A stretch of 64,000 bases of DNA from Tubulanus polymorphus. Its lineage: Eukaryota; Animalia; Nemertea. The notes below the pieces were generated by a model that worked only from the letters and a program-made list of their open reading frames with translations, was not told the origin of the DNA and searched no databases. A program made the translations under genes and the position numbers. Shown in pieces: positions 7,982-36,049 of this stretch (positions are counted from its first letter, which is position 1; each line of letters starts with the position of its first letter). Location: assembly GCF_964204645.1 (NCBI RefSeq), contig NC_134027.1:13362485-13426484 (forward strand). Reading direction: 5' to 3'.

Positions 7982-7998
7982 TTTTTCACTATATAAAT

Positions 7999-8339: not shown

Positions 8340-8561
8340 ATGAGTGATAATAAGTGGATAATAACTGGATTATATAATGGTGCCTTACTATCAGCTGGAA
8401 CTGTTGGTTATTCAATGGTATTAAAAAAAGTATTCAAAATGGGAAGTATTAATGATGATAAATTTGATATCAATGATATTCTAAAATTAACATTAGCAGT
8501 TACTTTATCTCATTTAACTATTGATTATTTAGAACAACAAAAATATATTCCTCCTATATAA
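8340..8561 (+). CDS. Small hydrophobic viral protein (73 aa)
   Basis: Intact ORF, near identical to 57480..57701; two hydrophobic segments. Confidence 0.8.
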   Translation: MSDNKWIITGLYNGALLSAGTVGYSMVLKKVFKMGSINDDKFDINDILKLTLAVTLSHLTIDYLEQQKYIPPI

Positions 8562-8585
8562 ATGCGTAATTACTTTACTAAATAA

Positions 8586-9008
8586 ATGGCATCTGCAATT
8601 ATAACTATTATAGGATCGGCAATTGTTAACGCTTTAGCATTTACTGGTGGTGGATATTTATTTAAACATATCGACAAAAATGGATCATCAACAGAACAGA
8701 AAAGGCATAATTTAGCGTTAGAGAAATTAAATAAAGCAGCAGAAGAATATAGAGAAAAAAAGACAAAACTATATGGATTACATCAATAACGAATTATATA
8801 ATCAGAAAATTACACATAGAGATTTTCAATCAGTCGATGAAGCTATGAGTTTATATAACGCAGTAACAAATCGTGAAAAATTACATCTATATAAACCTAA
8901 ATTATCAGATTATTATACACCAAGTAGTGAACAGAAAAAAATGAAATAATTTGGATCTTAGGTGGAACAGTTATTGTATTATTTGTTGCTTATAAATTTT
9001 CTAATTAG
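8586..9008 (+). pseudogene. ~140-aa viral protein with N- and C-terminal hydrophobic helices, frameshifted
   Basis: MASAIITIIGSAIVNALAFTGGG; homolog of 57726..58148. Confidence 0.8.
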
Positions 9009-9027
9009 TAATTTCTTTTCTAAATAA

Positions 9028-9457
9028 ATGGTTGATAAAGTTGATGATATTGATATTATTCCTCATGATATAAATAAAACTAAATCAAAAACATATTTGG
9101 AAAAACAAATATTAGAATTTGAAAATGATTTAAAGGTTAAAAAGAAAAATATTTAAAAAGTAAAATTATTATTTCATTATCAGTGGTTCAGTTACAATTA
9201 GTTCTGTTATAACATTTCTAGCATTATTCTCACCATTAACACCTTTAGCTATCTCAATTGGAGCTTTAGGTTTAAGTTCAAGTGTATTAACCGGCGTAAG
9301 TTCAAAATTAAATATAAAAAGTTATAAAGAAAAAATATAATCTAATATAAAAGAAATTGATGAATTAGAAAATACATAAGATTATATAATAAGTTTAAAT
9401 GGTAATATAACAGTTGAAGAACAAGATAAATTATTAAAAGAATTAGTAAATTATTAA
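9028..9457 (+). pseudogene. ~141-aa two-TM viral protein, frameshifted
   Basis: Homolog of 58168..58593. Confidence 0.75.
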
Positions 9458-9473
9458 TTTTCTTATTATATAA

Positions 9474-10840
9474 ATGGGGTTTCCAAAAGCTTTCTAATAT
9501 AATAAATCAATTAAATATAATATTCCAGCAATAGATTTTAATAAAGATATTTCATATAGAAATGAAGTTTTAAATTCATTAATTAATTTAGATATTTATG
9601 TTACTGAAACTAATAATTTTCATGCAAAGATGGAAAATATATTTCATGTATATTTAATTAATTTTCAAAAATTGAAAGATGAAAAACAATCGTTATTAAA
9701 ATCTAATATGAAGTGTTGGCAGAACCAATTAAATTTTGCTGTTTATTGTGCAACAACAGGATGTGGAATTAGTTGGAATGATCATTTGACTAATTCAAAG
9801 TATAAATTAGTCAAAGTTTATTTAGATTCCATACTTATTTTCAAATAAGATTAATATTAAATGAATAAGAGACTCCTTTGCCAGGGTCTAGATATTTTAA
9901 AGAATTAGATAATAATATTAATTTATCAAAGTTTTGTAAAATTTGTATTGAATTTAATATAGATATAAATCATTCTGATTTTAGAACAAAAATTAGAACA
10001 ATAAAAGAAAATGTTTCAGCATATTGTACACTTCCCATACCATCTAATAGCTTTTATAATATCTATAATAATAAATTAGGTTATGGTAAAATAGAAACTA
10101 AAGATTTAGAATCATTAAATTTCAATAAATTACCGAAATTCTATGATAATTTAAAACAAGAAAACAATAATGTTTGGGTTTATTTTATTTTTGAAAATAG
10201 TGAAGGATTTACAAGATCAGGTATACAAAGAATAAATCAATCAATTAGAACTTATTTGATATGTATTCTAGGTGTTCAAGTTGAAACAAGATCCCCGATA
10301 ATTGGAAATTCAAATACATCATTTGATACACAAAAACAATTTAAAGAATTATTTGAAGATTCAATTCATAATGATAAAAATAGATCGATTCCAGAAAATA
10401 TAGTTAGGTACCAAAATTATTTAGATAAATCTCATGTAAGATTAAATTATTGTATAGGACCTAATTTATTAATTATTTCTGATGATTTTATATTAAAGAT
10501 GGGAAATATGATTGGTTATAATAATTTAATAAAGACTGCAACAATAAATAATTCATTTGGATTAAATGACATAAATAAAAAGATTATTACTGCTCCAAAA
10601 CTAATGGAAGGTGAAAAAATTAAAAAACATATTCGATCAACTGAAACTAGAACTAAAAATATCAAATTAAATAATGATTCTAAAATAAAAGATTATAATA
10701 CGTCAGAAAATATAAAAACTGATATTATTCAACATGATATAATTAAAACTAATAATGATAATAAATCCCATGAAAATACCAAATTAGCTATAACTTGTAT
10801 AGGAATTGTAATTGGAGGAATATTATATTTTAAATTTTAA
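9474..10840 (+). pseudogene. Conserved ~450-aa viral protein with C-terminal TM helix, disrupted
   Basis: QNQLNFAVYCATTGCGISW motif; homolog of 58610..59999; joins ORFs 9630..9848 and 9878..10840. Confidence 0.8.
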
Positions 10841-10856
10841 TTTTTATATGGTATAA

Positions 10857-12253
10857 ATGGATGTAGAAGGTGAAGCTTGTGAAATGGGAGAAATGGGAAA
10901 TAATAATGAAGGATTTATACCTGATGAACCACAACCTGATTTTAATGAAACTAATATGGATAATGATGATGGATCAGCATATAATTCTAATTTAGCAGAT
11001 AGTGGTTCTAAGGCCCCTTCAACAGACCAATTGATAACTAGATCGAGAATAAATCCTGAAAACGAAAATCCAGTAAAACAAAATTTAGTAAAACAAAATT
11101 TAGAATATAATGCATATATTTATAATTTCAAACCTATATTTGAAAAATCTGGATATAATATCAATGATAGAGGTGCTAGACTTTTAGTAAGAGAATTAAA
11201 ACTTTTAGATAGTGGTTAATATCATTATCATTTGAAAGATGATTATTATATTGATATCTCTTATAAAAATCTAAATAAAATATTAGCAGAATCAACTTTG
11301 AGTAATTTAGAACCATCTAGAATTAAAAGAATAAGTAATAGTAATGAAATAGAAAATGTTACACAAGAAGAAATAAATCAAAATAAAAGAGTATTTAAAC
11401 AAAGAATTAATGACTTATTTGAAACAATCAATAATAATTTAGAAACAGAAACAACCTCTGAACAGAATATAACTTCCAAAACTAGTAAACTTAAATCAAA
11501 TAAAGTTCCAATTGAAAAACTTTTACCAAATGGGTTACTAGATGCAAGACATCAAGAATTAGAAGATTTAAATATATTTTCTGATAAAGCAATTAGAGAA
11601 ATTTTTAGTATAAGACTTGCATCTGATAAAATTGCACATGCTAAAAGTATAAGGGAATTTAAATATAGAACTTTAGAAAAAGATAGAAGTGATAAAATTA
11701 AAGAATTAAAGTTAGATAGAGATAATAAAGTTATTGAAGAAATTGAATTCAAAAAAAGAAATGCATATTTAGAAAAAGAAAAAGATGATTTAGAATATAA
11801 CATAGAATTACAGAAAGAAGAAATTAAATTATTATTAATTAATTATTATTAATTAATTAATTATTAATAATATTAATAGATTAAAAGTTTATTTTTAAGG
11901 ATTTGTTGATAAAACCAAATTCTTAAATATCATTAAAAGATAGAATAAAATTATTATTTAAGTTAGAAGGTATAACAATTCTTTCAATTCTAACAGCTGT
12001 AACTATGGTATTCACAACAATAGGTTTAGCAATATTAAATTCAAAGTGAAAGATGGTTTGAAAAAATTAGCAAAATATTTATGGGAACTATCTAAAAAAT
12101 CTGCTGCAGCTTTACCCGGAATTATTGCATCTATTGTTGGTTTTGTTTAAAAATCTGCTGGGAATATTCTTAACTTTGCTGCTGAACATATTATTTCATT
12201 TTTTATAGTTGTAAGTGCAATTATTTTCGGTTAGTGAATATGATCAAAAATAA
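10857..12253 (+). pseudogene. Acidic N-terminus / coiled-coil / C-terminal hydrophobic viral protein, disrupted
   Basis: ORFs 10857..11219 and 11232..11852 plus tail KKLAKYLWELSKKSAAALPGIIASIVGF; homologs at 30711-32447 and 60015-61466. Confidence 0.75.
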
Positions 12254-12279
12254 ATAATCAATTTTTTTCTCTTAAATAA

Positions 12280-13537
12280 ATGAGTGGGAGTTACATAAAT
12301 CCCTCTAAGAATTCTAGAATATCTAATGCTATTCAAGCAGAGAGATCTCATCATATAATTACTCATAATCCTTCTAATATTAATCCCGATGAAACGTTAT
12401 ATGTTAGAATTCCTCGATTAACACAAAATACTTTTTATGTTCCAAATAGTATTTATTTGTCAGCTGATATAAAAGTAACTGGCCATGATAACAATTATGT
12501 TGTTGATAATGTTGGAAGATATTTGATTAAAAAATTAACTATAAAGATTGGACCAGAAACAGTTTATTTATTAGATGATTATAATTTATTAATGCATTAC
12601 AAAGATTTATGGTTAACAAAAGAAAATAGAAACAATATGATATTTCAAGGCATCCAATCAGAAAACCATAATAAATCAAGATCAGAAGCTAATAATGCAA
12701 TAATACAATAATAAAACTAATGCTACGGATAATTTGATTAAAAAGATTTATGGAAGCAAATATAAAATTCCATTAGACTTTGAATTGATAAATAATAATG
12801 CACCTTTATATAAATATGCTATACAAGAAGATATTATATTCGAAATAACATTTGCTCCTGTTAATGAAATAGTATTATCAAGCGTAGTTAAAGATATGGG
12901 TTATAAATTATCGAATATATGTTTAGAATATGACACAGTAACTAATGAAAATTTTTCAAGTATAATTCAAACTCAATACAATCAAGGATTTTCATTATTA
13001 TATGATTATAGTGATAAATTTAAAACTGTAACTATTAATGCAAATGATGAAATAATTAATGAGAATATTAACTTCCCAAGGAGATCTATTAAAGGCATAT
13101 TAATATTTTTTATCACTGCTACATATTCTAATGGTGCAATACAGGTTGATAAGTATTATAACCCAGAAATAACAAAAGTAGAAATAACTATCGAAGGTAT
13201 AGCTAATAAAATATTTTGCCAATGAATGAGAATGATTGATCAATGGCCAGAAATTAGAAAACATTTTATGAATCAAAAAGTAAAATCATCTGAAAATTGT
13301 AATATTAATCAAATTGATTATTATACCGGTAATAAATACGCATTATGGTTAGATTTTAGAACAACTAAAGATAATTTATTACATGGTTCTGGGAAAAAAT
13401 TACAGAACACTAAAGATGGAATACAATTATTCATGAAAAAGAAAAAAGGGAGCTTAGATTTCAAAATGCACATTTATATCATATCTGACGCGCAATTAAA
13501 TATTGTAAATTCTCAAATGAATAGTGTTATGTATTAA
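12280..13537 (+). pseudogene. Putative major capsid protein (double jelly-roll), premature stops
   Basis: Three consecutive ORFs (~410 aa in total, beta-rich; HNPSNINPDETLYVRIP...YALWLDFRT); size, position and high conservation among three copies fit a Polinton MCP. Confidence 0.75.
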
Positions 13538-13569
13538 AATTTTAATTTTAATGAAAAATTCTATAATAA

Positions 13570-14358
13570 ATGGAAGGTGGAATATATGAAATACAAACTA
13601 CAAGTGAAATAATGTCAGATATCTATTATATAATACCTTATGAACATAGTAAGTATTTTGGAGAATTCTATAATCAATTCAAATATAGAATAAGTAAAAT
13701 TGATAATAATAAAAGTGGTGTTGTTGATAATGTAAGTAATGAAATTGATATGTTATATAATAATGTTTTACCTTCTACATATAATAATAAAATAATATTA
13801 GATTATAGTGAAAATAGAAATTATTGTGGTTATTGTAAAGGTGCATTTTCAAACAGCCCATCAAATTGGAATAACCATATGAATACAGCTGTACATATTA
13901 CTAATGTTATAAAACGCGTTGGTTTAAGAGAATTTATAGAACACCCATTTAGATATGTAACAAAGTTTGTTTCAAATAAAAAAGTAAATGGTAAAGATTT
14001 ATATAAAGATTTATTATGTGAATTTTTATCTAAGGAACCTGAACACAGTAAAGATGAATTAGATTTAATTGATGCTAATAAAATATTAGGATCAAACATT
14101 GTAAATAAAATATTAAGGTCAAACACTAAGAAAGAGGATATAGTTACAGATAAGCATATTGATAATGAAGATTATTTAGATACAGATTGGACGAAACGTA
14201 AAGTAGTAACTATTAATGATGCGGTAGATCGGATGAAAAAGGATTATATTGAAAAAACTTATGATGATCCGGTAGATAGGGTTAATAGATTGTTAGAGTC
14301 TGATGATGAATTGGAGGATGATGATGAAAATGATGTTAATTATCTCACATTCACATAA
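13570..14358 (+). CDS. Element-specific protein with one C2H2-like zinc finger and acidic tail
   Basis: Intact 262-aa ORF with TAAATG start; CGYC...WNNHMNTAVH. Confidence 0.65.
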   Translation: MEGGIYEIQTTSEIMSDIYYIIPYEHSKYFGEFYNQFKYRISKIDNNKSGVVDNVSNEIDMLYNNVLPSTYNNKIILDYSENRNYCGYCKGAFSNSPSNWNNHMNTAVHITNVIKRVGLREFIEHPFRYVTKFVSNKKVNGKDLYKDLLCEFLSKEPEHSKDELDLIDANKILGSNIVNKILRSNTKKEDIVTDKHIDNEDYLDTDWTKRKVVTINDAVDRMKKDYIEKTYDDPVDRVNRLLESDDELEDDDENDVNYLTFT

Positions 14359-14394
14359 GATAATAGTTGAAAATGGTATAAAATAATAGTTAAT

Positions 14395-14715
14395 AAAAAA
14401 GGGGTTTTAAGCATTTAGGTATCTAATACGTATTCAATACGTATCTAATACGTATTTAAGTATTTATGTATCTAATATGTATTAATCTAAATAACCTTTA
14501 TTATTTTCAAACTTAGTTGAAAAATTAAAATATATTAGTTGAATAATTAAAATAAATAATATATTTTAAAAAAGGGGGTTTTAAGCATTTAGGTATTTAA
14601 TACGTATGTAATACGTATTTAATACGTATCTAATACGTATTTAATACGTATCTGATACGTACCTAATACGTATCTAATACGTATTTAATACGTATCTAAT
14701 ACATAAATGCTTTAA
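14395..14715. repeat. 11-bp tandem repeat (taatacgtatY)n in two blocks between convergent genes
   Basis: Repeated taatacgtatc/taatacgtatt; leader aaaaaggggttttaagcatttaggtat duplicated at ~14396 and ~14570. Confidence 0.9.
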
Positions 14716-14720
14716 ATGCC

Positions 14721-15318
14721 TTATTTTATAAATTTATATTCATAAGGAAATTGAAGCTTCAGAAGTAATTTTGAGCCTTTATTATTCTTTAATTTATTCA
14801 TATATTCATCATGTAATTCAGTAGGTATAATTTGATTCTCTTCCAATAATTGTTGCATAGATTTTCTATCTTTGTTATAAAATAAAACTAAAAATCTTAT
14901 ATTCTCCCTAAAATCTTTCACAATTGAATTATAACCCATGTTGTTATCCCAAAATGTCTCCCAGAGAAAGCTAAATAGCATAACTCACTTTCTCTTACTT
15001 TTGAATCATGTAAATTTGCACAATCATCTATAATGAATAATGTATTTCATCCTTTATAAATATCCATTGCTATTTTAATCAATTATCTAAATTTTCTTTT
15101 ACTGTTTTAGGATTTAATATGATAAACTTTTTTATCTTAACTATATCTCTATTATATGTTTTATTCATTTCATAAGTAGGGCATAATAATATTATATTAT
15201 CAAAATGATTCTTATAAATAGTTTCTAACAAATCTAATATGAAATGTGTTTTACCACAGTTGGTTACTCCAGTAACTAACATATTATGCGGTTCAAATAT
15301 AAATTAATCTTTATTCAT
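14721..15318 (-). pseudogene. A32/FtsK-like packaging ATPase, frameshifted
   Basis: Walker A GVTNCGKT; Walker B-like FIIDDC near 15020-15040. Confidence 0.88.
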
Positions 15319-16393
15319 TTATTCTTTTAATTTTACTAGATGAAATCCATTCATTAAATTTATCATCATACCCTTTATATTTCACCAAAGAATACTTTTT
15401 TCCTTTAAGAGTTTTTGTTTTCAATACTTTTTCTATTTTGTATTATATTTCATCTGGATTCGGTACACGTGATAATTCTTATTCATAGAAATAACCTAAT
15501 ATATCTTCATCTTTTAAATATTCTAATATATAAACAAAAGGTTTAGTAAGTATTATCTTTTTAATTTTAAATATATCTTCGGTAAAATTAGGAGTATAAC
15601 CTTTATAAAATGTTTTTCGATATTTAGATATTCTTACATGCTGTCCTATTTTGAATTTAGGTTCACCAAAATCATGTGTAACAAATGCTCCATATAAATT
15701 ATTCCAAACTATTTCTGAATTATCTTCTTTTCTAGCTTGTATAGGTTTCATATTTATAGAACTATGTTTAGAATTATTATAACCTTTCACTAAATCATCT
15801 AACACATCGATATATTTATATGTTTCAGTTGCTGTAAAATATTTCCACATTCTAGTTTTCAATGTTTTATTAAATCTTTCAATGATAGCTTTTTTATCTG
15901 AATGCGTTGAAAAATATTCTACATCGTTATCAGATAATAGTTTTTTAAAATGTTTATTATAGAATTCCTTACCTTCATCAAATTGTATCCTACCTGGATT
16001 AGCTTCTTTAAATATTGATTTAAAAGCATTAGTAACCTCTAAACCTGTTTTATTTTTGATTGGTATACTCCATGCGTATCTACTTAATATATCTATAACA
16101 TTTAATATCCAGAAATATCCTTTGTTGTATTCCTCTAAGTTCTTCATGTCAATTAAATCTGCTTGCCATTGTTGATCGATATATGAAACCATAACTTTCC
16201 TTGTTAAATAATTTTTATCCATTTTCTTATGGATTTGATATCTTGGTTGATTTTGTAACCATAATTTTAATTCACTATATTTTATATTTTCTTTATCAGA
16301 TTTAATTTTATCCCATAATTCTGAAACGCTAGAATACGATACTTCACTCTCTGGGTTATAATATAAATCTCTTAAATATTGTTCTTTTTTCAT
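15319..16393 (-). pseudogene. RVE (DDE) integrase with C-terminal chromodomain, stop before chromodomain
   Basis: WQADLIDM, IDILSRYAW, QFDEGKEF, IERFNKTLK motifs. Confidence 0.93.
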
Positions 16394-16398
16394 CTTCT

Positions 16399-16691
16399 TT
16401 TAATCCATTAATAATAATCTGGGTTTATTTTCAATGGTTTTATCATTTGACTTATTTTCTGGTATAATAGGTTTATCATCGGAATCATTATTATTAGATT
16501 TGGATTTATGTTTATATATTACGCCAGAAAATATAATAACTGTTACTAATCCAATTGTAATATATAATTTATTATTACTTCCTGCATTAGAAGAATCAGA
16601 CGGATTATCATTCGAATCAATAACAGATAATTTCTATGGTTCATTTAATTTGTTTTTCGGATCTAGGTTTCTTCTTAATATCATCACTCAT
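16399..16691 (-). pseudogene. Small membrane-anchored viral protein, internally deleted
   Basis: Homolog of 26371..26646. Confidence 0.65.
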
Positions 16692-17240
16692 TTATTTTAG
16701 TTAATTTTTGTTCTGATTCAATATCTTCTGATTTACTTTTATCTTTGTATTCTATAGGTTTGATGTTAGAAAATGTTATAAATCCAGTAGAAATCAATGT
16801 CATTATTCCTCCTAAATGGAATGAAGCGTATCCGACCCATTTCTGTAGTTTTGTCATAACTAAGTAGTCATTTTTTAAATCACTATATAATTTGTTTTCA
16901 TCATCAATTGGTATAATCCGGTTACATAATTTAGAGTAACATTTATAATACCATCTCTTATACAGTCGTTTATTCGAGCTAATCTAGCTTCTTCATATAT
17001 TTTGAAATGTTTTATTACTTTATCTGGTTTCATGGGATCTAGTTCTTGATAAGTTATAATTTCTCCCAAGAAGTCCTTAGATTTGCCGCCGGCAATTATT
17101 AACTCAAGATGATGCTTACATGTTAAATAGTATTCATAATCAATATTATTATCAACTTGAGCACAATTAGAAACAACTGTATCATTATTGCCAGTAATGC
17201 CCAAATCCTCAATTGTCTTTTCAATATCAGATTTCTTTGA
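16692..17240 (-). pseudogene. Hypothetical viral protein, frameshifted
   Basis: ORF 16875..17204 (IAGGKSKDFLG) with coding-like continuation ending in a hydrophobic stretch. Confidence 0.5.
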
Positions 17241-18398
17241 CTTTTATATTAGAGAAAAAAGCGAAAAAAAATACTATAAGTATTATAGAATGATACAAGT
17301 AACTCTTTAATTAACACTAGCTTAGTTAAGTTAAAGAATTCTAGGATTAACTAGATTTGAATAGCTAGTTGAAGTTATTGTTTTTTTATTCAATTCTATT
17401 CAAAATATAAAGTATTCTCCTTTTAAAAAGAAATATTAGATTTTGAAAAAAATCAAAATAGAATTCACTAGCTAGTTGAAGTTATTGTTTTTTAAATACT
17501 TTTTATTTAAATTAGGATTCAATATCTCACTACTTTTGTCTATCTATTAGGAGCAGTAATTATAACAGTCCAGATAAGTCATTTCGGATCCTCGATAATA
17601 AATCCTCAAACTGAAAATCAATTCAACGAAAACGTCGGGTGGAATTACTATTTCATAAACACATGTATTTTATTCTACAGTCAGTATCGATTTCAACATT
17701 CCAAGCCGCTCATTTCATGAGCGGTAAGGTATGCGCGGAATGCAGGAATCAATTCAAGTATAATACAACATCTGTCACTGTAACCATAAACAACGACTGA
17801 ATGACGCAATTGAAATTCCGGCAAACGTAATGCATTGAAAGTCTATACAGTATGGCTAAACTGCTTCAGTCACATAAGTTGAAATATCCGTAATTTCTGA
17901 TTTCACTTCCTTCCATATTCACTTTCATGACTCAAATAGCAATTGTCTTCTTGTTTCGCGTAGCATTTTGTTATCTAAAAGATAAATATCTAGCGTAGAA
18001 TAAAACTAACTTGAAGGTGTAGTTGTCAAATATGAATTACAGCACTTAAACATGTTTAACGTTTCCCAACACCTTAATAACAACAAAAACGGTACTTACA
18101 TTTATAACTGTAAACTCCCAATTGTGTTTCTAGCGAGAAATCCTATGCGTTCTGTATATTCCGTCTGTTCAGTTCGGTGCTCCAATGTGTTGTAATGCGT
18201 CTGCGCTATGGAACGCTAGTGACAGCTGTTCTTTTATGATGAAATTGATTAGGCCTAATTCTTTTCAACTGAAAGCGTTCGATCAATATTCAAATGAGGT
18301 ACTCCCCATTCAACTAGCTGCGACACAGATGCAAATAGCTAATACAATTGCATATAGGCAGTTTGACATAGATCGAGAGATACCGGTTTTCTAAGCAC

Positions 18399-19090
18399 TT
18401 AAGATTCAACGTATTTTTCATTATGTGTTGAGTAATTCCATAATTCAACAAATGTCTTTGCTTTACACAGCTGATCCAAATATAACTGAAAATCTAGTTT
18501 ATTTCCTTTCCTAATATTTTCAACTTTTTCTAAAGGTCTTAAGTTTTTCCAGCTCCAGATTAATTTCTGTTTGTCTTCATCATTCATGTTGAATTTAGAT
18601 ATTGGTAACACATGATCAATATGAAAATAATCTCCATAATTATCTATATTCATTTCACCATTGAACTGATCTATAATCTATGATTTTAAGAATTCATCTG
18701 AACAACCCAACAAATTAGATAGTGTTTCTGAGTGTTTATCTTTACCGAATAGTTGTGATAATCTAGAACTTAAACATCTTCTCATTTTAAAATTAAAATC
18801 TGTTTTATACCTTTCATTTTGATAATTATTACTGTAATCATTATAATGTCCACGATTATTATTTCTCCATTCTCTCATATATTCTGTCATATAATCTGGG
18901 TGATTTGTAAAATATGTTTTATTATTCTGTTTCCAACATGTTTTACAATTATTTCTTAAACTATCTTTCTTAGTTTTTGTGTGTAATATTCTGTAAATGG
19001 CTTATTCAACTCACATTTTGAACATTTCTTATAGTATATATTAACAAAACTATTTGTAATATTGATAGTTTGTGATTGTTCTGTCTCCAT
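18399..19090 (-). pseudogene. HNH endonuclease of the type common in large DNA viruses, disrupted
   Basis: MNIDNYGDYFHIDHVLPISKF...WKNLRPLEKVENIRKG; upstream FKMRRCLSSRL and CKTCW; TAAATG start at 19090. Confidence 0.8.
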
Positions 19091-19099
19091 TTATTATAC

Positions 19100-22000
19100 A
19101 TATTTTTTTTACTAAAATTTGATATTTCCTTTTCTTTCTCTTCTTCTCTTTTAAATATTAAGTATTCTTCTAAACCATACGCGACTGTATGAATTCCATC
19201 ATCCAGAATATATCTTTTATCATCGAATGGGTTTAAACTTATCTTCTCTATCTCTTCAATAAACATTTCGTGGTACTCAGATCTTAAACATTTCATCTTA
19301 TGTTTTCTAACTTCTTTATTAAATATACAATTGATGTAATCTTTAAAATGAATATTCTTTTCAACAACGCTTTTGGTTATTCCTTTCAATTTCTTTGATT
19401 CATGAGTTTTAGTTTTATATTAATACATTTTAGATCTAATTCCAATGAACTCTATCATTTCTTCACCTCCTAATTCATCCTTAAACTTCCCGGGCACCTT
19501 TTTATTATCATTGCTAGACAATTCATGAACTTTTGGATAATTACTGAAATCAAAATGATGATTTAATGTTTTTAAATCATCTGTTATGTTATTAGTTTTT
19601 ATCTTTGATACGTAACTGTCAGTATCAAAATATAAGATTTCTATATGCTTTTCTCCAAAATGAGGTTGTAATACGTTATAATAGAATTTATACATTAATA
19701 GTTTTGATATTTCTAAAACTGTTGCTCCAACATAAATTGGTTTATTAAATTTCATAGAAGTTCTCATTTTAACTGCAGCTAAATTTTCATCAAATATTCT
19801 GTTACCAGTAAATTTAGGATATGTTTATAAATGCCTTATCCTTTTACCATTACTAACTAACTCAATATCATTTCTATTTCTAATATTTTCACAAGTCTTA
19901 CCATAGAATGCATTATTCATTAGTTTGAAGAAATCTTTCTCGAAATCAGTTTTAGCTTTAGTTCTCTGTTTCGTGTTGAAATCTATATATTTTTCTAACC
20001 ATTTTGATTGACTGAATGAAATATTCCTATGTACCTTTTTTTTAGAATCATTTTTTAGAATCATTTTTTAGATTTAAATAAAACTTCAACATTCTATAAT
20101 AAACTACATAATTATATTTATCTTCCTGAGTTACCATTAATTTTTCTGTATGAATATGATTTTCGGGTTTAATTCTTTTTTGATAATTTGATAATTCTTC
20201 ATGTGTTACAGTTTTATGTTCGGGACAGTATGCTAGATTTCTGGATTTAAATTTTTTATCTTCAGGATATTCCAAGTCTACAACAAAGAAGTAACAAGTA
20301 TCTGAATCATCTGCAATATCTAGAATTCTTTTCTTCCAATCAAATTTAACATTATTTTCATGTTGTAAAACTTCACTTATTTCAAATACCACATAAGGTT
20401 GTGGTTCCATCATTGCCCAACCATATAAATTCTTTGCATCTATATATAATAACTTATATCCAGGGTTATCATTTACATTGAAATATCTATCACCTAATAC
20501 ACCTGAAACTCCTCCTCTTATTGATTTTTCAAATAATAATAATTGATCTATATTTGTGAACAAATCCATTTTTATATCTGTAAATTTTAAACCACAGTCC
20601 CAAGTTAATCCTGGACTAGAATAACAATGGCAAGGATCAATATTGAAATATTTTAGATTTACATCTCTAAACCTTTCAAATACATCTGATTTTAAATATA
20701 AATCTACTAATCCTCCATGATTTTTTATTTTGAAATGATTCCAAATATGCAATGTGCTATTATAAACTCCATCTTTAACATATTCATTTTTTAATTATCA
20801 TAGAATTGTTCTTTTAATAATTCAGTTATATTGAAATCATTATGCGATTTATAAAATGAATATGGAATTGCTCCTTTATATTTCATTAATTGAAAATCAT
20901 CATTATTTGGATAATGTTGTTTTAATATTTTTAATTTATCATCAACTAATGATTTTGATAAATTATCTAATGAACTGCTTAAAAATCTATATGAATCTAT
21001 AAATCTTAGACACCCAAATTGGAAAGATATATAATTCTCAGATGTTTTAGCTAACATTTTGAATTTATAAGTTGGTATTTTAGCAACACCTTTTGATCTA
21101 TTTGAATTTAATCTTTCTATTTCATTATTGATTTCTTCTATTTTATGACATAGCTGTTTGATGAATAAATGAGCATCATACCCTGGTAAATTATGAAATA
21201 TTACTGGAACAAAATTGATTTTCTTAGCTTGTAAGTTACAATTCTAATGCGCTGCACCTCTAAACTTTCCGTTCAAATGATTATGGTCTCTAACGTTTTT
21301 ATCTTTAAAATTAAATGTCTTTTCACAATAAAAACATTTATCTGCAAACTAAGATTCTTCTTTATCTTCTTCTGTCATTATAATTTCTATATTTGTATTT
21401 AATAGTTTACTAAATTTTATTTCATACTCAATTAATAAGTCACAAAAATGATTTATGACATGTTCATTTCTATAATGATAATATTCACTTTTAATTAGTT
21501 CTGGATAATCAGATTTTATATATAATCCAAAAGCTGCAGCAATTTGATGAATCTTTTTAATAGTATTCGTTATCAGAGGATCTGAATAATCAATTATATC
21601 ATTTTCAGAATTTAATTTCTTTCTTTTATAATATATTTCTTTTCTATCTTGATCAGTTAATTCCTTATTTAATGATTCAAAATCTCCATATATTACAAAT
21701 GGCACTTTATTCTTGTAATCATATTTTTTGAATTCTAATACTTTATCCTTTTCATTTGGTAAAACTATTTTACAATAATCATGATTATCGCATAATTGCT
21801 TATGATTTAATAATGCCCTTTCATTACTGAATTTAGTTATACATTTTCTACATAGATATATTTTATTGTGGTTATTTTCTGTTCTAAAAGATAATTCTAT
21901 TTGTTTAATCCACACATAATGATTTTCATAATATAATATATCTATAACACCATTTGAATCATAATCTTTTGATAAATACAAAGGTTCTAATGTAAAATGT

Positions 22001-23128
22001 TCAATTTTATTGCCTTTTGTTTTTGGTAATTTGACTAAATCAAACACATTTAGCTTTATTCTATTATCTCTTTCTATTTGTGGTATTTGTTTAATTCTAG
22101 CAGGATAATTATCTATCTTATAATTATTTTCAAATGGTTTATAATGCGTTAATCTAAAACTATGAGTAATATCTTCTGTTGGATGTAAGCAACTTATAAT
22201 TGACCATAGAACACATTTATCATCTTCATTTTGTACATTTATAACAGCATTAGTTTTAAATGGTAATTTTATATAACTTGGTCCATTTATATTATCATCT
22301 ATATAATATGATAAATTATTTTCATCAATTGGGTTCGATTTAGTAAATTTATTATATTTTGTGTTATAAACATGTAAAGTCATAAATATTATTTCATCGA
22401 ATATCAAACCAGATCCTTCAAAATATTCCTCTTCTATCTTATTTTTTATTTCATTATAACATTTATTTAATTTATCATCTATATGTTGTTTAGATGTGAT
22501 ATATTGTGAATGGGAATTTATATTATATATTGGTTTATCTTCTGATTTTAAAAATTTAACTTTATATACTCATTTTAGGGTATTCTACGTCTGTAATTAT
22601 TTTTACAATATTTTTCATATTTTCTAAATGTTTTTTTTTTTCTTCTAATGTTTTACCTTTATGAAATTTAAACTCGATAGCGGCTGGTCCTATATCACTT
22701 TTGAATGCTTCGGTTATTTATATTTCCTTTTTATTATCTAATGAATTAATATAATTTCTTACATCTTCCATGTATGGCCTTTTATTGTCTATTTCATTTT
22801 TTATTCTTTTAATTGTCTTCTGTTTCTCATCATTATCATTATCAAAATAATCTTCACCTAAAATATCATTATTCATATTTCTAATACGACTTTTAGATTT
22901 TAAATGTTCTTTATAATATCTTTTGTTACTAAATGATTGATTACATGTGTCACATTTATATACTTCTTTTTCATTCTTTAATTCATCTAATTTAGTTTCT
23001 AATATATCATCTTTATATTTTAACTTTGATTTATTTTCTAAATGTGTTTTAGTTTTATTATGTCTTGCTTTTTGAGATTTATCTATATCAATTTTACATG
23101 TTGAACAGTAGTACTTATTTGCTTCCAT
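19100..23128 (-). pseudogene. polB: Protein-primed family B DNA polymerase (intein-free allele), fragmented
   Basis: YGDFESL (Exo I), YIDAKNLYGWAM (motif A), KLMNNAFYGK (B), YFDTDS (C), KMY; N-terminal zinc fingers. Confidence 0.95.
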
Positions 23129-23171
23129 TTTAATATCCAATTTTTTTAATTAAAATTGATTTTACATATTT

Positions 23172-23473
23172 TATTCGAAATCTATTTTATTTTGCCCTTT
23201 TTCATTCTAACCTTTATATATGAAATAGAAATCACCAGAACATAATTCTTCTAAATCTTCACTTGATAATCTATGAAATCTATCTGGTAAATGTGTTCTG
23301 AATTTATATTTATTTCCTTTTAATCCTTCATATTCTAAGTGAATAACTAATTTATCTCCATATTTATTAGTAACTGTATCAATATTTGTAATTAAATATT
23401 TCTTATGAATTGTTAATTCTGTTAACTTCTTAAATGATTTGTTGTTCTCACTGTGTACTTGTTTACTCTCCAT
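23172..23473 (-). pseudogene. TIR-embedded small protein, possibly OB-fold ssDNA-binding
   Basis: FKKLTEL...TNKYGDKLVIHL...HLPDRF...FIYKG; copies at 25254-25595 (+) and 36050-36413 (-); function inferred. Confidence 0.55.
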
Positions 23474-23567
23474 TTTGATAACATATTTTTTATTAAAATT
23501 GCTTTTAGAAAGTATTAGATTAATATTTGAAGAGTAATAGGGATAATAGGTGTTCATAACAATGGTT

Positions 23568-24700: not shown

Positions 24701-25253
24701 ATAGCTGCCTAGCAGCGATAACGGGTTTCTGCCTAACTGGTTTACATGTCGCCCTGGGAAGCGTATAAAGATTTCATCGAAAAATTCTAATCCGTCCATA
24801 ACATATGACTATTTCCAAGAAGCGCAACCTGGGTCAACGTAATGCTGGATATGTGGATCCGTAAGGACTACCACGTAAAAAGTACTGATGGACCAAGTCT
24901 AGTCAAAATGGCTTTGAGGATACCGAAGATATAGTACCCTGGTGGCAGTTGCATGAACTCGAAAAAGTCTCGTGACGATGCAGGTGGTAGCCGAGAAAAA
25001 GAAATATTTTCGAGGAAAATTTTTGAAGACACAATGCAAACACACTTATTGTTCACTTTCTTTCCTATCACTATTTTGGAAATTGAAGTATTGTAATAAA
25101 CAATAGATTTTGTTTGGCAGGTCATCTTGCTCAGGATTCTGTTTATCAAAGCATCGGAGCAATACAGACTAACTTGTTTAAGTCTCCGATGCTGCGAGGC
25201 AGGGCGGTCATTATATTGCTGGCTTATCCAAATTAAACCAACAGAAGTAATAA

Positions 25254-25595
25254 ATGGAGAGTAAACAAATACACAGCGAATTCTTAAATAGAATCAAAGA
25301 TACTACAAATGTCAAATCTGTAGATTATAAATTCAAAAAGTAAACAGAATTAACGTTACATAAGAAATATTTAATTACAAATATTGAAACAATTACCAAT
25401 ACATATGATAATGAATTAGTTAGTCACTTAGAATATGAAGGATTAAAAGGAAATACATATGAATTCAGAACATATTTACCAGATAGATTTCATAGATTAT
25501 CTAGTGAAGTTCTAGAAGAAGTGTGTTCTGGTGATTTCTATTTAATATATAAAGGTATGAATGAAAATGGGCACCATGATATAAATTTCGAATAA
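25254..25595 (+). pseudogene. TIR-embedded small protein, left copy of element 2
   Basis: atggagagtaaacaa... homologous to 23172-23473 and 36050-36413. Confidence 0.7.
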
Positions 25596-25631
25596 TATAA
25601 AATCCATTTTAATACAAAATTTGATATCAAA

Positions 25632-26342
25632 ATGGAAGCAAATAAGAAGTACTACTGTCCAACATGTAAAATCAATATAGACAAATCTCAAATAGCAAGA
25701 TATAATGATACTAAATCTCACTTAGAAAGCAAATTGAAATTAGAATATAATAATGATATATTAGAAACTAAATAAGATGAATTAAAGAATGAAAAAGAAA
25801 TATATAAATGTGATACATATAATCAATCATTCCGTAACAAAAGATATTATAAACAAAATTTAGAATCTAAAAGGCATATTAGAAATATTAATAATGATAT
25901 TTTAGGTGAAGATTATTTTGATAAAGATATTAATAAGTAACAAAGCATGATTAAAAGAATTTAAAAAAGACCATACATGGAAGATGTTAGAAATTATATT
26001 AATTCATTAGATGATAAAAAGATATTGAAATTACTGAAGCATTTAAAAGTGATATCGGACCAGCTGCTATTGAATTTAAATATGATATTTTAACATAAGA
26101 AGAAAACAAAAAAAATGTAGAAAATATGACAAATATTATAAAAATAATTACAGACGTAGAATACCCTAAAATTTGTATATCTGATAAAGTTGATTTTATA
26201 AAATCTGTAGATAAACCACTATAATATAAATTCTCATTCACAACATAATATTTAAAAACAACATACTGATGATAAATTACATAAATGTTATAATGAAATA
26301 TTTAGTAGAAGAGAAATATTTTGAAGGATCTGGTTTGATATT
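25632..26342 (+). pseudogene. polB: pPolB N-terminal zinc-finger region only, truncated by deletion
   Basis: MEANKKYYCPTCKI...YFEGSGLI matches 22400-23128 (-). Confidence 0.85.
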
Positions 26343-26370
26343 GAAACAGAACAAAAATTAACTAAAATAA

Positions 26371-26646
26371 ATGAGTGAAGATGTTAAGAAGAAGCCTAGA
26401 TCCGAAAAACAAAGTAAATGGGCAAGGGAATTAGGCAAAAGATCTTCAGAATTAAAAAGAGCTAAGAAAAAGAAATTAACTGATATAAATGAATCACAGA
26501 AATTATCTGATATTAATTCGAATGATAATCCATCTGATTCTTCTAATGCAGGAAGTAATAATAAATTATATATTACAATTGGATTAGTAACAGTTATTAT
26601 ATTTTCTGGCGTAATATATAAATATAAGTATAAATCTGATTATTAA
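26371..26646 (+). CDS. Basic N-terminus, single-TM small viral protein
   Basis: 91 aa, KKKPRSEKQSKW..., LYITIGLVTVIIFSGVIY; the gene probably ran on to ~26715. Confidence 0.65.
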   Translation: MSEDVKKKPRSEKQSKWARELGKRSSELKRAKKKKLTDINESQKLSDINSNDNPSDSSNAGSNNKLYITIGLVTVIIFSGVIYKYKYKSDY

Positions 26647-26721
26647 CCTATTATACCAGAAAAAAAATCAAATGATAAAATCATTGAAAATAAACCAAGA
26701 TTATTAATGGATTAAAATAAA

Positions 26722-27798
26722 ATGAAAAAGGAACAATATTTAAGAGAGTTATATTATAACCCTGAGAGTGAAGTATCATATTCTAGTATTTCAGAATTAT
26801 GGGATAAAATAAAATTTGATAAAGAAAATATAAAATGTGAAGTGAATTAAGATTATGGCTAAAAAATCGACCCACATATCAAATACATAAGAAAATGGAT
26901 ACAAATTATTTAACAAGAAAAGTTATGGTTTCATATATTGATCAACAATGGCAAGCAGATTTGATTGACATGAAGAACTTAGAAGAACACAATAAAGGAT
27001 ATTTCTGGACACTGAATGTTATAGATATATTCAGCAGAAGTATTGGAGTATTCCAATCAAAAATAAAACTGGTATAGAAGTAACCAATGCTTTTAAATCA
27101 ATATTTAAAGAAGCTATTCCAGGTAAGATCCAATTTGATGAAGGTAAGGAATTTTATAATAAACATTTTTTTAAACTATTATCTGATAACGATGTAGAGT
27201 ATTTTTCAACACACTCAGATAAAAAAGCATCTATTATAGAACGGTTTAATAAATCATTGAAAACTAGAATGTGGAAATACTTTACTGCTAATGAAACATA
27301 TAAATATATCGATGTATAAGATGATTTAGTGAACGGTTATAATAATTCCAAACATTCAAGTATTTGTATGAAACCTATACAAGCTAGAAAAGAAGATAAT
27401 TCCGAAATGGTATGGAATAATTTATATGGAGCATTTGTTACACTTGATTTCGGAGAACCTAAATTTAAAATTGGACAACATGTAAGAATATCTAAATATC
27501 GAAAAACATTTTATAAAGGTTATACTCCAAATTTTACTGAAGAAATATTTAAGATTAAAAAGATAATATTAACGAAAGCTTTTGTATATAAATTAGAAGA
27601 TTTAAAAGATGAAGATATATTAGGTTATCTTTATGAACAAGAATTATCACTTGTACCAAATCCAGATGAAATAGAATACAAAATAGAAAAAGTATTGAAA
27701 ACAAAAACTCTTACAAGAAAATTATTCTTTGGTGAAATATAAAGGGTATGATGATAAATTTAATGAATGGATTTTATCTAGTAAAATTAAAAGAATAA
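26722..27798 (+). pseudogene. RVE integrase with chromodomain, frameshifted
   Basis: WQADLIDM; YKIEKVLKTK; close copy of 15319-16393. Confidence 0.92.
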
Positions 27799-28322
27799 AT
27801 GAATAAAGATTTATTTATATTTGAGCCACATAATATGTCAGTTACTGGTGTAACCAACTGTGGTAAAACACATTTCATATTAGATTTGTTAGAAACTATT
27901 TTTAGAAATCATTTTGATAATATAATATTATTCTGTCCTACTTATGAAATGAATAAAACATATAATAGAGATATAGTTATGATAAAAAAGTTTATTATCT
28001 CATAAATTGTGCTAATTTACATGATTCAAAAATTAGAGAAAGTGAGTTATGCTATTTAGCTTTCTCTGGAAGACATTTTGGAATAACAACATGGGTTTTA
28101 AATCAAAAATGTAATTCAATTGTGAAAGACTTTAGAGAAAACATTAGAATTTTAGTATTATTCTACAATAAAGATAGAAAATCAATGCAACAATCATTGG
28201 AAGAAAATAAAATTATACCTACTGAATTACATGATGAATGTATGAATAAATCAAAAAGTAATAAAGGTTCCAAATCATTACTGAGACTACAATTTCCTTA
28301 TGAATATAAATTTATAAAATAA
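27799..28322 (+). pseudogene. Packaging ATPase with internal deletion
   Basis: GVTNCGKT Walker A; C-terminal LQFPYEYKFIK as in element 1. Confidence 0.88.
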
Positions 28323-28359
28323 AATCATAATTTGGAATATGTTAGAATTTTGAATTGTG

Positions 28360-28408
28360 TATGAATGGATGAGTGGATGAATTGGATGAATGGATGAATG
28401 GATGAGTG
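28360..28408. repeat. (GAATGGAT)-like short tandem repeat at the convergent gene junction
   Basis: atgaatggatgagtggatgaattggatgaatggatgaatggatgagtg. Confidence 0.8.
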
Positions 28409-28489
28409 TAATCATATATAATTTACATATGTTTTTATTTAAAAAACACTAAGAGTTTGATTTTAAGTTATTTATACTATATTTAAATA

Positions 28490-29406
28490 TTATCTTAATG
28501 AAGTGAATGTTGCTCTTGAAAATATTTTTGGAATATAATTTTCGATTTCAGTTTTAGATGGATGGTTATTTAAAAATTCTCTAAAATCATCATATTTAAG
28601 TTCAACTAAGTTCATTGCATAAGTTACATTTGGTTTAAAGTTATTTAACTTTTTCAATATGGTAACTATATCATTACTCGAGAAATAATCTATAAATGTT
28701 TTTCTATACCACCGATAATCTAATATATTCATTTGATTAAATTTTGGATTTATAATTAATGGATTTTCTATTACATTATCTGTACCTATATGTTTAATTG
28801 AGCATTTATGATTCAATTGTTTATCATATATTACATATTCTTTACATTTTTCACACCAAGATTTAAATACGTATATTGCATGGGCTGAATCATTTCCACC
28901 TTTTGTTTTTAATTTATAATGTTTTGCCCAATAAGCGTTTGATATACATTCATTACAGAAGGCACAATAATTTTGGTCTTCTTTGCATTTATCTTTACAT
29001 ATATTAGTATATATTTTTACTGATTGTAAAATATGTTCATCTTTTTTGACGTGCAATAAATGATCATTATTATTATCAAAATCTTCTTCACAATACACAC
29101 ATCTGATGTTATCTTCTATTTTAGATTCAACATTATCTTCTTTTTTTGTTTCAATATTATCTTCTATTTTTGTTTCAATATTCTTATTATTAGATGTAGA
29201 AGGTATATTATCTATATTATCATTATTATTATCTTTTTTATTTATATCATTATTACGTTCAATTAAATATTCTTTGTATTGATTTAATTCATTAAATAAA
29301 AATGTTCCAATATATTCATTTATTCTTTATAAGGTATTACATAATACAAATCATCATTGATTTCTTTATCAGCTTTGATTCTTTCATATAACTTACCTTC
29401 ATCCAT
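28490..29406 (-). pseudogene. Element-specific Cys/His-rich (zinc-finger) protein
   Basis: ORF 28490..29098 with CAFCNEC..HYKLKT, CEKCK..HKCSIKH; occupies the same slot as 13570..14358. Confidence 0.6.
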
Positions 29407-29438
29407 TCATTATAGAATTTTTTATTAAAACTGAAATT

Positions 29439-30686
29439 TTAATACATAACACTATTAAATTGAGAATTTACGAAATTTAATTGCGCGTCAGATATGATAT
29501 AAATGTACATTTTGAAATTTTTGATTCCTATTTTCTTTTTCATGAATAATTGTATTCCATCTGTAGTGTTCTGTAGTTCTTTCCCAGAACCATGTAATGA
29601 ATTATCCTCAGTTGTTCTAAAATCTAACAATAATGTGTATTTATTACCGGTATAATAATCAATTTGATTAATATTACAATTTTCAGATGATTTCATTTTT
29701 TCATTCATAAAATGTTTTCTAATTTCTGGCCATTGATCAATCACTCTCATTCCTTGACAGAATATTTTATTTGCTATACCTTCGATGGTTATTTCTACTT
29801 TTGTTATTTCAGGATTATAATACTTATCAACCTGTATTGCACCATTAGAATATGTTCCATTTGTAAAAAAATATTAATATACCTTTAATAGATCTTCTAG
29901 GGAAGTTAATATTCTCATTAATTATTTCATCATTTGCATTAATAGTTACAGTTTTAAATTTATCAATATAATCATATAATAATGAAAATCCCTGATTGTA
30001 TTGAGTTTGAATTATGCTTGAAATATTTTGATCAGTTACTGTATCATATTCTAAACATATATTCGATAATTTATAACCCATATATTTAACAACGCTTGAT
30101 AATACAATTTCATTAACAGGAGCAAATGTTATTTCAAATATAATATCTTCTTGAATTGCATATTTATACAAAGGTGCATTATTATTTATCAATTCAAAAT
30201 CTAATGGAATTTTGTATTTGCTTCCATAAATCTTTTTTATCAAATTATCTGTAGCATTAGTTATTATTGCATTATTAGCTTCTGATCTTAATTTATTATG
30301 GTTTTCTGATTGGATGCTTGAAATATCATATTATTTCTATTTTCTTTTGTTAACCATAAATCTTAATAATGCATAAATAAATTATAATCATCTAATGAAT
30401 AAACTGTTTCTGGTCCAATCTTTATAGTAAATTTTTTAATCAAATATCTTCCAACATTATCAACAACATAATTGTTATCATGGCCAGTTACTTTTATATC
30501 AGCTGATAAATAAATACTATTTGGAACATAAAAAGTATGTTGTGTTAATCGAGGAATTCTAACATATAAAGTTTCATCGGGATTAATATTAGAAGGATTA
30601 CGAGTTATTATATGATGAGATCTTTCTGCTTTAATAGCATTAGATATTCTAGAACTCTTAGAAGGATTTATGTAACTCCCACTCAT
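29439..30686 (-). pseudogene. Putative major capsid protein, disrupted
   Basis: Three ORF pieces nearly identical to 12280-13537. Confidence 0.75.
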
Positions 30687-30710
30687 TTATTTAACAAAAA
30701 AATTAATTAT

Positions 30711-32447
30711 TTATTTTTTATTATATTCACTAACCCAAAAATCATTGCACTTACAACTGTAATTGAAAAAAAAAATAATATGTTCAGCAGCAAAGTTGAT
30801 AATATTCCCAGCAGATTTTAATATAAAACCAACAATCGATGCAATAATTCCGGGTAAAGCCGCAGCAGATTTTTTAGATAGTTCCCATAAATATTTTGCT
30901 AATTTCTTTAAACCATCTTTAACTTTAACTTGTATAGAATTATTATTATTCGGTGGTTTATCAGGTGGTTTAGGATTTGGTGTAGGAGTAGATTTTAATG
31001 AATTTGACATAGCTAAACCTATTGTTGTGACCATAGTTGCAGCTGTTAGAATTGAAAGAATTGTTATACCTTCTAACTTAGATAATAATTTTATTCCATC
31101 TTTCAATGATATTTTAGAAGAATCTGGTTTAATTATTAAATCTTTAAAAATAACTTTTAATTTTTTTAATATGATTAAGATCATATGATTTTGATAATAT
31201 ATCTCTTTCTTTTTCCTGTAATTCTTTGTTATATTTTAAATCATCAATTTCTTTTTCTAAAGCTAATTTTCTGCATTCATATATAACTTCATCAATTACT
31301 TGAAGATATTTATTTAATTCTAATTGTTTTAATTCTTCATTTGCATTAGTTAATTATTTTTCTAACATGGTTATTTTAGAAAATCTCATCTTAATATTAG
31401 CAATTTCACCAGCTGATTCTTGCATACCTTTAATTTCTCTACGTGCTTGTTCAGGAAATATTTTTAATTGTTCTTCATTTAAATCAAGTAATCCTTTTTT
31501 AATAAAGATTGCATTCGATTTGTCCCAGTTTCAGTACCAGGTGTATCTAAAACACTAATCATATCTTCTTCAAATGAATTCATTGTATCCAGTAAGTTAT
31601 CTAAATGTTTTCCTAATTGTAATTGACTTGAATCATTATCAAGTTGTTGAATATCTCTTCTCGATGTTTCTGGTGTTGAAGTTCTTAATTTATCTAATCG
31701 ATCTCCATACTCTTCCATTTCTGGATCAACATAAGTAGGATTTAAATTTGGATTTTTAAATGGTGAATATTTGTTAATATCAATATTCGGATTTGGTCTT
31801 TCTTCATTTATTCTATCGAGTGAATTCCATATAATTCTGAGAAATTCTGAACGACCTTTTGAACATTCAATTGAAGATCTTGCTAGCATTCCAGGTTCAA
31901 ATATATTTTCTTGACCCATTCTAGATAATAGTATTGATACAGTTCTGTTATTTAATTCAACATTATAAAACCATGCATCATTTTTAAATTCTAAATTATT
32001 CATAAAAAATGGGTCATCTTGCAAAAAAATTTGCATTACAACACCTTCTGAATCAACTTTATCTATTACATCTTTTGGTAATAGTTCGTTAACAATTGTA
32101 ACTATTACTCTACTTTTCATTAATTATAATTATTCTTTCAATTCAGGGTTTTCTGTTTTTTCTAATCTATCAATTAAATCTTTTCTAAATATTATGGGTT
32201 TAATTACTCCCCTTTCGTGAGCTGTCATATATTCTTCAAATTTTTTGCGCGTTTCAGTATCATCTTTAAATTCATCATAATCATATAATATAGGCCCACT
32301 AGAATCATCTTAACCTAAATTATTATTATATGCTGCTCCATCATCCTTATCAATATTAGTTTCATTAAATTCAGGTTGTGGTTCATCACTTATACCAGGG
32401 GCGTCACCAAAAGTATCCAATGGAATTTCTTCTCCACCTTCTACCAT
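30711..32447 (-). pseudogene. Acidic / coiled-coil / hydrophobic-tail viral protein with a divergent middle
   Basis: Tail TPTPNPKPPDKPP...SAAALPGIIASIVGFILK; middle ORF 31479..32120 unlike the other copies. Confidence 0.75.
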
Positions 32448-32464
32448 TTACATAATAAAGAAAA

Positions 32465-33764
32465 TTAAGATTTAAATTATAATATTCCTCCAATTACAAT
32501 TCCTATACAAGTAATAGCTAATTTAGTATTTTCATGTGATTTATTATCATTATTAGTTTTACTTATTTCATGTTGAATAATATCAGTTTTTATATTTTCC
32601 GATGTATTGTAATCTTTTATTTTAGAAACATAGTTTTAGTTTCTGTTGATTGAATATTTTTTTAAATTTTTTTCACCTTCCATTAATTTTGGAGCAGTAA
32701 TAATCTTTTTATTTATATCATTTAATCCAAATGAATTATTTATTGTTGCAGTTTTAATTAGATTATTATAACCAATTATATTTCCCATTTTTAAAACTAA
32801 ATCATTAGAAATAAATAATAAATTAGGGCCTATACAATAATTTAATCTAATATGTGATTTATCTAAATAATTTGATATCTAACTATATTTTCTGGAATCG
32901 ATCTATTTTTATCATTATGAATGGAATCTTCAAATAAAAATAAATTGTTTCTGCGCGTGAAATGAAGTATTATCATTTCCAACTATTGATGATCTTGTTT
33001 CAACCTGTAAACGTAACAACTTAAATCAAATAAGTTCTAATTGATTGATTTATTCTCCGTATTCCAGCTTTAGTAAAACCTTCACTATTTTCTAGAATAA
33101 AATAAATCCATCCATTATTGTTTTGTTGTTGTATATTATTATAATATTTTCGTAATTCATTCCAATTTAGTTTTCTAGTATCTGTATTTGTTATTATTTT
33201 ACCAAATTCTTTAATATATAATATTCCTAATCCACCCATTGTACCAATTTTTGCTCTAAAATCATTATTTGAGTTAATATTGAATTCATTGCATATCTTA
33301 TAAAACTTAGAAAAATTGATATTATTATTTAGTTCATTAAAATATTTTGAAGCTGGTAAAGAACAATCTAATTCATCTAATATTAATTTTATTTGAAAAT
33401 ATGTATGAAATCTAAAAAGTGATAATACTACTGGTAAACTTGGTTTATTTAAATGATCATTCCAACTTATACCACACCCTGTTGTTGCACAATAAACTGC
33501 AAAATTTAATTGGTTCTGCCAATATTTCATATTAGATTTTAATAACCATTGTTTTGCCTCATTTAAATTTTCAAAATTAATTACGTAAACATTGAATATA
33601 TTTTCCACCTTAACATTAAAATTATTAGTTTCAGTAACATAAATATCTAAATTAATTAATGAATCTAAAACTTCATTTCTATATGAAATATCTTTATTAA
33701 AATCAATTGCAGGAATATTATATTTAATTGATTTATTATATTGGAAAGCTTTTGGAAACCCCAT
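32465..33764 (-). pseudogene. Conserved ~450-aa viral protein, disrupted
   Basis: MGFPKAFQYNKSIKYNIP...QNQLNFAVYCATTGCGISW. Confidence 0.8.
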
Positions 33765-33780
33765 TTATATAATTAAAAAA

Positions 33781-35255: not shown

Positions 35256-35271
35256 TTATATAATGAAAGAA

Positions 35272-36026: not shown

Positions 36027-36049
36027 TTATTTTACATATTTTTATATTA

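Follow-up and report, generated by a model that had tools for sequence, protein, structure and literature searches.

The window, that is, the whole stretch of 64,000 nucleotides of Tubulanus polymorphus DNA analysed here, contains remains of Polinton/Maverick elements, one of which carries an intein in its protein-primed DNA polymerase (pPolB) and another of which has the same polymerase position empty. The most probable reading of this pair is that the empty site belongs to the catalytic centre of a dead and diverged Polinton, that the intein homes among near-identical elements of its own lineage, and that the site in element 1 is probably cut and rarely converted. Beyond the window, we see about an even chance that Polintons carry active homing inteins which came from giant viruses at least twice and were brought into animal germline genomes, with filled, empty and cleavage-escaping alleles coexisting in dozens of copies.

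Three decayed Polinton/Maverick elements were recognised in AT-rich blocks of the window by self-comparison and Pfam searches. Their positions and those of the features discussed below are as follows.

7200..23500 (approximate ends), strand not assigned: element 1, with a capsid module (+), an integrase at 15479-16399 (-) and a pPolB (-)
19153..23116, - strand: pPolB pseudogene of element 1, intein-free
19612..19635, - strand: empty intein insertion site, codons L-Y-F-D / T-D-S-Y of polymerase motif C, insertion point between 19624 and 19623
25250..36440, strand not assigned: element 2, an inverted sister of element 1 (82-90% in DNA) with terminal inverted repeats
25632-26349: pPolB remnant of element 2, start of the gene only, the rest deleted
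48300..64000 (left end approximate, runs off the window), + strand: element 3, with a pPolB, a capsid module at 56355-62749 including a major capsid gene at 61490-62347, and an integrase at 62766-63851
48369..52368, + strand: pPolB pseudogene of element 3, host of the intein
50850..50861, + strand: upstream extein flank that matches the empty site
50862..51926, + strand: intein, open frame of 355 aa with Ser1, a TxxH block B, two LAGLIDADG motifs, the block F Asp, terminal Val-Asn and Thr+1
51927..51938, + strand: downstream extein flank that matches the empty site

The gene set is that of Polinton/Maverick elements and includes an integrase (rve, E 2e-10, with a chromodomain), a capsid protein (Capsid_N, E 0.003) and pPolB genes with relatives that match PF03175. 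No Pfam match to a packaging ATPase or a protease was obtained among the 23 pieces scanned, and Rfam and tRNA scans of the window gave no matches. Terminal inverted repeats are present in element 2 (82%) and partly in element 1; 6-base target duplications were not recognised by eye. The named polymerases nearest in sequence come from a brittle star and a mussel, and arthropod and mollusc members occur in the clusters of capsid look-alikes; an animal host is therefore likely. The polymerase gene of element 1 is interrupted by in-frame stops at 22720, 21351, 21246, 19827 and 19422 and by frame changes near 22564, 20795 and 20040-20075, and one piece of it gave a weak match to DNA_pol_B_2 (E 0.004). 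The polymerase of element 3 is without approximately residues 235-551 of its relative P0157, has frame breaks near 50488 and 50680, and is broken off at 52368 by unrelated DNA. Element 2 has lost all but the start of its polymerase gene and therefore has no intein site. The DNA at 52369-55000, which cuts into the end of the element 3 polymerase, is GC-richer; at 52368, 223 reads of the run described below continue unlike the window and the depth falls to 11-37.

Elements 1 and 3 resemble each other unequally along their length. Their capsid modules (7230-13551 and 56355-62749) are 84-88% identical, their integrases (15170-16387 and 62793-64000) 70% identical, and their polymerases 74-76% identical in DNA over the aligned gene, and the order of the genes differs. 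The two elements are thus mosaics and not simple sisters, and modules appear to have been shuffled between Polinton lineages. Other mobile DNA is found nearby. Positions 1244-1358 and 1518-1769 hold the remnant of a fourth element, with the final codons of a polymerase like that of element 3 and, after them, part of a zinc-finger gene. A long simple-repeat block between elements 1 and 2 (23520-24800) has short inverted ends like 46471-46580 and is perhaps another mobile element. A broken retroelement piece at 40487-41274, with reverse-transcriptase-like text by eye and a GIY-YIG match (E 0.003), is presumably Penelope-like.

The insert in the element 3 polymerase is 1065 bases long and encodes 355 residues with no stop. 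Its removal restores the conserved extein motif, and an empty orthologue is found in the window as well as in relatives. The insertion point lies between D and TDS of motif C, which places the intein at the pol-c allele; passages of PMC549080 describe this point for the intein of the Mimivirus PolB and as position III of the archaeal PolI. Both LAGLIDADG motifs have their acidic residues, and the intein motifs are conserved in a comparison with 47 relatives. A structure model (pLDDT 89, pTM 0.90) gave TliVMA, PI-PkoII, PI-PfuI and PI-SceI as best fold matches (E 1e-17 to 1e-10), and as modelled the intein has the full Hint-plus-endonuclease fold with canonical anatomy. The penultimate residue is Val, so the canonical penultimate His is absent. 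Across 48 inteins this position is His in 23, Lys in 21, Val in 2 and Ser in 2, and it is Lys in P0437, the closest relative; with such variation, His is evidently not required in this intein group. The Val, together with the private changes carried by element 3, means that this particular copy may be impaired. An ATG at 50730, 44 codons upstream of the intein, opens a frame of 553 residues that contains the whole intein, so that endonuclease could in principle be made from the broken copy. From these sequence features the intein is likely a protein-splicing, DNA-cutting parasite.

The first-pass annotation had reported 24 bp of identity between positions 19612-19635 and the joined flanks of an intein about 31 kb away, and both the identity and the distance were confirmed: on the minus strand, 19635-19612 matches 50850-50861 joined to 51927-51938 at 24/24 bases. 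The match ends on both sides at a mismatched base, no second copy of the 24-mer within 6 or fewer mismatches occurs elsewhere in the window, and its chance expectation from base composition is approximately 1e-8. The match exists because the two polymerase genes are homologous. Ungapped identity around the insertion point is 28/30 upstream and 23/30 downstream, or 86/100 and 83/100 over 100 bases. Given the same eight amino acids, the probability of eight identical codons at a preset place is about 0.03-0.04; elsewhere in the gene the two copies share codon runs of 9, 8 and 7, so that for this gene pair the 24 bp are unremarkable. The element 1 site is an intein-free catalytic site, YFD/TDS, at the pol-c position. 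With an empty site beside a filled element in the same window, the earlier proposal of a candidate target in the same genome stands, and judging from its letters the site is plausibly a good cleavage substrate. In the reads described below, 25 depart from element 1 at 19610, 13 bases off the insertion point, and small indels are seen at 19611 in 7 and 5 of 283 reads; these are possible repair scars or may be unrelated.

The same annotation took element 1 to be a sister of the intein-bearing element and held homing between such integrated copies to be testable, with co-conversion tracts to be searched for. For element 1, the role of a close sister allele or likely recipient was not supported. 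The two polymerases share 69.4% amino acid identity over 748 residues, and each has a closer relative elsewhere, P0157 for element 1 (79%) and P0160 for element 3 (82%), both of which are empty; on sequence grounds they represent separate lineages. Identity at silent sites is 318/493 over the two genes (64% background) and 24/38 and 29/42 on the two sides adjoining the insertion site, which is the background level and argues against a conversion tract. Site patterns in four aligned rows gave 72 concordant positions against 9 and 4 discordant ones that are not clustered at the site. No conversion tract between elements 1 and 3 was thus found by either silent sites or site patterns. Since element 1 is diverged, has an intact site with neither tract nor repair scar, and both genes are pseudogenes, element 1 is an unlikely homing recipient.

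Filled and empty alleles were also followed in the reads of run X5, which is whole-genome DNA with the same species label from another study and sample and of which 12% was read. The depth averaged 210 over the intein (9 bins, 125-257) and 372 over the element 3 exteins (17 bins, lowest 279-295), was approximately 495 just upstream of the element 3 insertion site, and was approximately 280 across the element 1 site at 90% likeness; these estimates are coarse, as 150-base reads cannot separate a converted element-1-type allele from an element-3-type allele. At several positions the window's own letter was present in only 0-6 of 160-460 reads. A single locus therefore yields few reads, and each allele type likely numbers dozens of copies or more. 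Of 66 loose ends, the 6 listed (17-173 reads) all lay away from the element 1 insertion point, none of the listed ones joined the intein to element-1-type flanks, and no exact intein-skipping joint on element-3-type flanks was among the joints listed, which leave 18 more unlisted. In 27 reads an additional empty allele appeared that encodes the same peptide by different codons. The contig runs X1, X2 and X6 contributed little. Filled and empty alleles are both multi-copy at roughly equal depth, and their coexistence, which had been proposed from the window, extends to the reads. Most element-3-type alleles are apparently filled and most element-1-type alleles empty, an apparent sorting by lineage.

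Relatives of the intein were sought among public proteins, from which 120 of 333 longer homologues were listed. The closest of those listed (40-62% identity) occupy the same site in other protein-primed polymerases, and the next-closest are RNA-primed PolB inteins at the pol-c site. Over the C-terminal half of the intein, P0437 shows 74% identity; its downstream extein is of the element 3 type. Relatives from IMG/VR (37 loci) and from metagenomes (best 80 of 130) were at most about 42% identical over the full intein. In a tree of 48 inteins hand-chosen from the listed homologues, 10 of the 11 pPolB inteins grouped together as a clade (100/100), next to 12 PolB inteins; support for this link to the giant-virus inteins is only 84/94. 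The P0270 intein fell outside the pPolB clade, elsewhere in the tree, and this separate position suggests a second invasion. The Polinton inteins likely came from pol-c inteins of giant-virus PolB at least twice. Related inteins were also seen in type II topoisomerase-like proteins (D/TDG) and other hosts, including P0008, P0084, P0103, P0110, P0115, P0289 and P0354, and in P0098, a named green-algal DNA polymerase delta. A tree of exteins was built by a quick method from 57 rows hand-chosen for length (13 filled, 44 empty). Intein presence changed at least 9 times over these rows, so that it does not track the extein phylogeny exactly; exact tracking, together with no cleavage of the site, had been named in advance as what would refute homing. 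In their deep split, the intein and extein trees agree with the exception of P0006, which indicates spread mostly among relatives. A comparison of branch-length ratios between the intein and extein trees as a test of transfer was inconsistent and was dropped.

The strongest evidence for homing is found in clusters of public proteins and not in the pair of elements 1 and 3. Three clusters contain both filled and empty alleles with exteins 94-99.8% identical; the clusters consist of proteins only, and the members of one cluster may be from different genomes. In the P0004 cluster (15 members listed of 136), 7 are filled, 6 are empty and 2 do not cover the site. The filled and empty members have 11 fixed differences, of which 10 lie between -7 and +44 and one at +104 (p 9e-14), and zero fixed differences in the first 1034 residues. 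In the P0270 cluster (10 members), just 3 of 1256 residues, those at -3, +4 and +5, distinguish the filled P0270 and P0425 from the empty P0424 (p 4e-7). In the P0009 cluster (15 listed of 121), the filled P0140 differs from the empty P0143 at 3 of 746 residues, none near the site. Four more clusters have only filled members where the site is covered, and three others only empty ones. Invasion by inteins has been reported in passages of PMC10643990 to co-convert flanking codons and to fail with short homology. The site-centred differences would fit such co-conversion, or else escape changes in the empty alleles, and either would imply an active endonuclease. At -2, +4 and +8 the outside lineages show the filled state, as would fit escape changes. 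Unusual motif C residues (TDA or CDS in place of TDS) were observed in P0129, P0131-P0133, P0135, P0136, P0422 and P0437, with three haplotypes among the 6 empty alleles of one cluster; these are possibly escapes from cleavage.

In the reading that we prefer, the intein would splice itself out of pPolB by means of Ser1, the terminal Asn and Thr+1 and so restore the catalytic motif, and its endonuclease would cut empty motif C DNA. The break would be repaired from a filled, near-identical element, with the intein and a short flank copied. Homing would take place chiefly during joint replication of elements in a single nucleus and would need high flank identity, so that the intein stays mostly inside its extein lineage. 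A diverged dead copy such as element 1 could be cut, but would offer poor homology and no onward spread. The first-pass annotation saw element 1 instead as a recipient awaiting invasion, with the intein homing between integrated copies. Between -30 and +15, element 1 does match element 3 at 42 of 45 positions, including the 24 identical ones; the majority of reads depart from element 1 immediately outside the 24-base core (19611), so that other copies may match further; and the swapping of capsid modules (84-88% identity against 70-76% for polymerase and integrase) indicates that the lineages do recombine. We nevertheless consider such a role for element 1 improbable, as its site is intact between flanks that are 15-25% diverged, empty alleles persist at about 280-fold beside filled ones at about 210-250-fold with no intein junction on element-1-type flanks among those listed, and the gene that would act as donor in the window is disrupted upstream of its intein.

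The presence of both allele types could also be due to an old, vertically inherited intein with an inactive endonuclease and repeated precise loss, the 24-base identity reflecting the conserved catalytic motif only. The agreement of deep intein and extein groups apart from P0006, the clustering of intein presence beyond that of shuffled data (7-8 of 500), and the equally long runs of identical codons elsewhere in the gene are all in line with vertical descent, but in the P0004 and P0270 clusters the differences are concentrated around the site, the acidic residues of both LAGLIDADG motifs are kept in 11/11 pPolB inteins shown, and two intein lineages share one and the same site. This explanation we regard as no more probable than that of element 1 as a recipient. 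Less probable still is that the element 1 site was overwritten in a short exchange with the intein lineage, by micro-conversion or precise loss. Both elements use a rare Asp codon (4-5 of approximately 55 uses) and a Tyr codon (5-6 of approximately 48), both have Leu at -4 where the nearest relatives have Met, and the empty allele of the 27 reads encodes the same peptide with other codons. The shared codons and Leu are a weak hint of exchange; however, the p value for the identical codons is only about 0.03-0.04, position -4 belongs to a scattered set of 7-11 sites that the two share, and Leu at -4 is also found in more distant relatives. Homing among near-identical elements of the intein's own lineage remains the probable account, with element 1 a diverged bystander.

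The pol-c inteins of Mimivirus and of archaeal PolI share with the element 3 intein the xxD/TDS insertion point, Ser1, terminal Asn, Thr+1, LAGLIDADG motifs and a length of approximately 350 aa, and relatives on giant-virus contigs are 40-42% identical to it. In contrast to the pol-c inteins, the element 3 intein has as its host the protein-primed PolB of an integrating Polinton with many chromosomal copies; the Polinton flanks are YFD, YMD, YSD, ASD or FTD as opposed to YGD, and the penultimate residue in element 3 is Val. PI-SceI homes into empty alleles. PI-SceI/VMA1, PI-PkoII, PI-PfuI and TliVMA have the same fold of Hint and two-motif LAGLIDADG domains at 11-18% identity; PI-SceI/VMA1 and the archaeal inteins reside in single-copy host genes, whereas the element 3 intein resides in a multi-copy mobile element. 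Nuclease domains inside Polinton polymerases have been described before, as HNH and VSR insertions in pPolB2, in 10.1101/2023.08.22.554363, in which the words intein, LAGLIDADG and homing do not occur. The domains inserted there are fixed, and no splicing module has been described for them, whereas here a complete intein lies in the active site and empty alleles exist. A passage of PMC11161782 suggests that nuclease insertions in pPolB stem from intein invasions, and genes of the GIY-YIG and HNH types are described in Polinton-like viruses in parts of PMC12220804. A 2018 survey of eukaryotic inteins (PMC5784728) places them in nuclear genes of fungi, plastids of algae, a few protists and large DNA viruses, iridoviruses among them, and Polintons are absent as hosts from its abstract, table and passages on hosts. 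PMC2530865 and PMC3671162 gave nothing further. No description of an intein in a Polinton polymerase was found in the literature searched, which covered few subscription papers, so that an earlier mention is possible.

The interest lies in the intein family and its homing signatures and not in the pair of elements 1 and 3. For the study of homing, the P0004 and P0270 families are better suited than the pair in the window, whose empty site is handy as a natural substrate. In Polinton pPolB, a complete homing intein would be a natural site-specific homing element present in many copies, likely on animal chromosomes, and would directly support the 2024 suggestion that inteins invaded Polinton polymerases. 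Homing would also demonstrate that Polinton genomes encounter one another in a nucleus and recombine there. Each family offers many copies that are dated, which makes it possible to tally invasions, tract lengths and escape alleles. If true, the cycle of a homing endonuclease would be running inside animal transposon families, legible copy by copy in genome assemblies.
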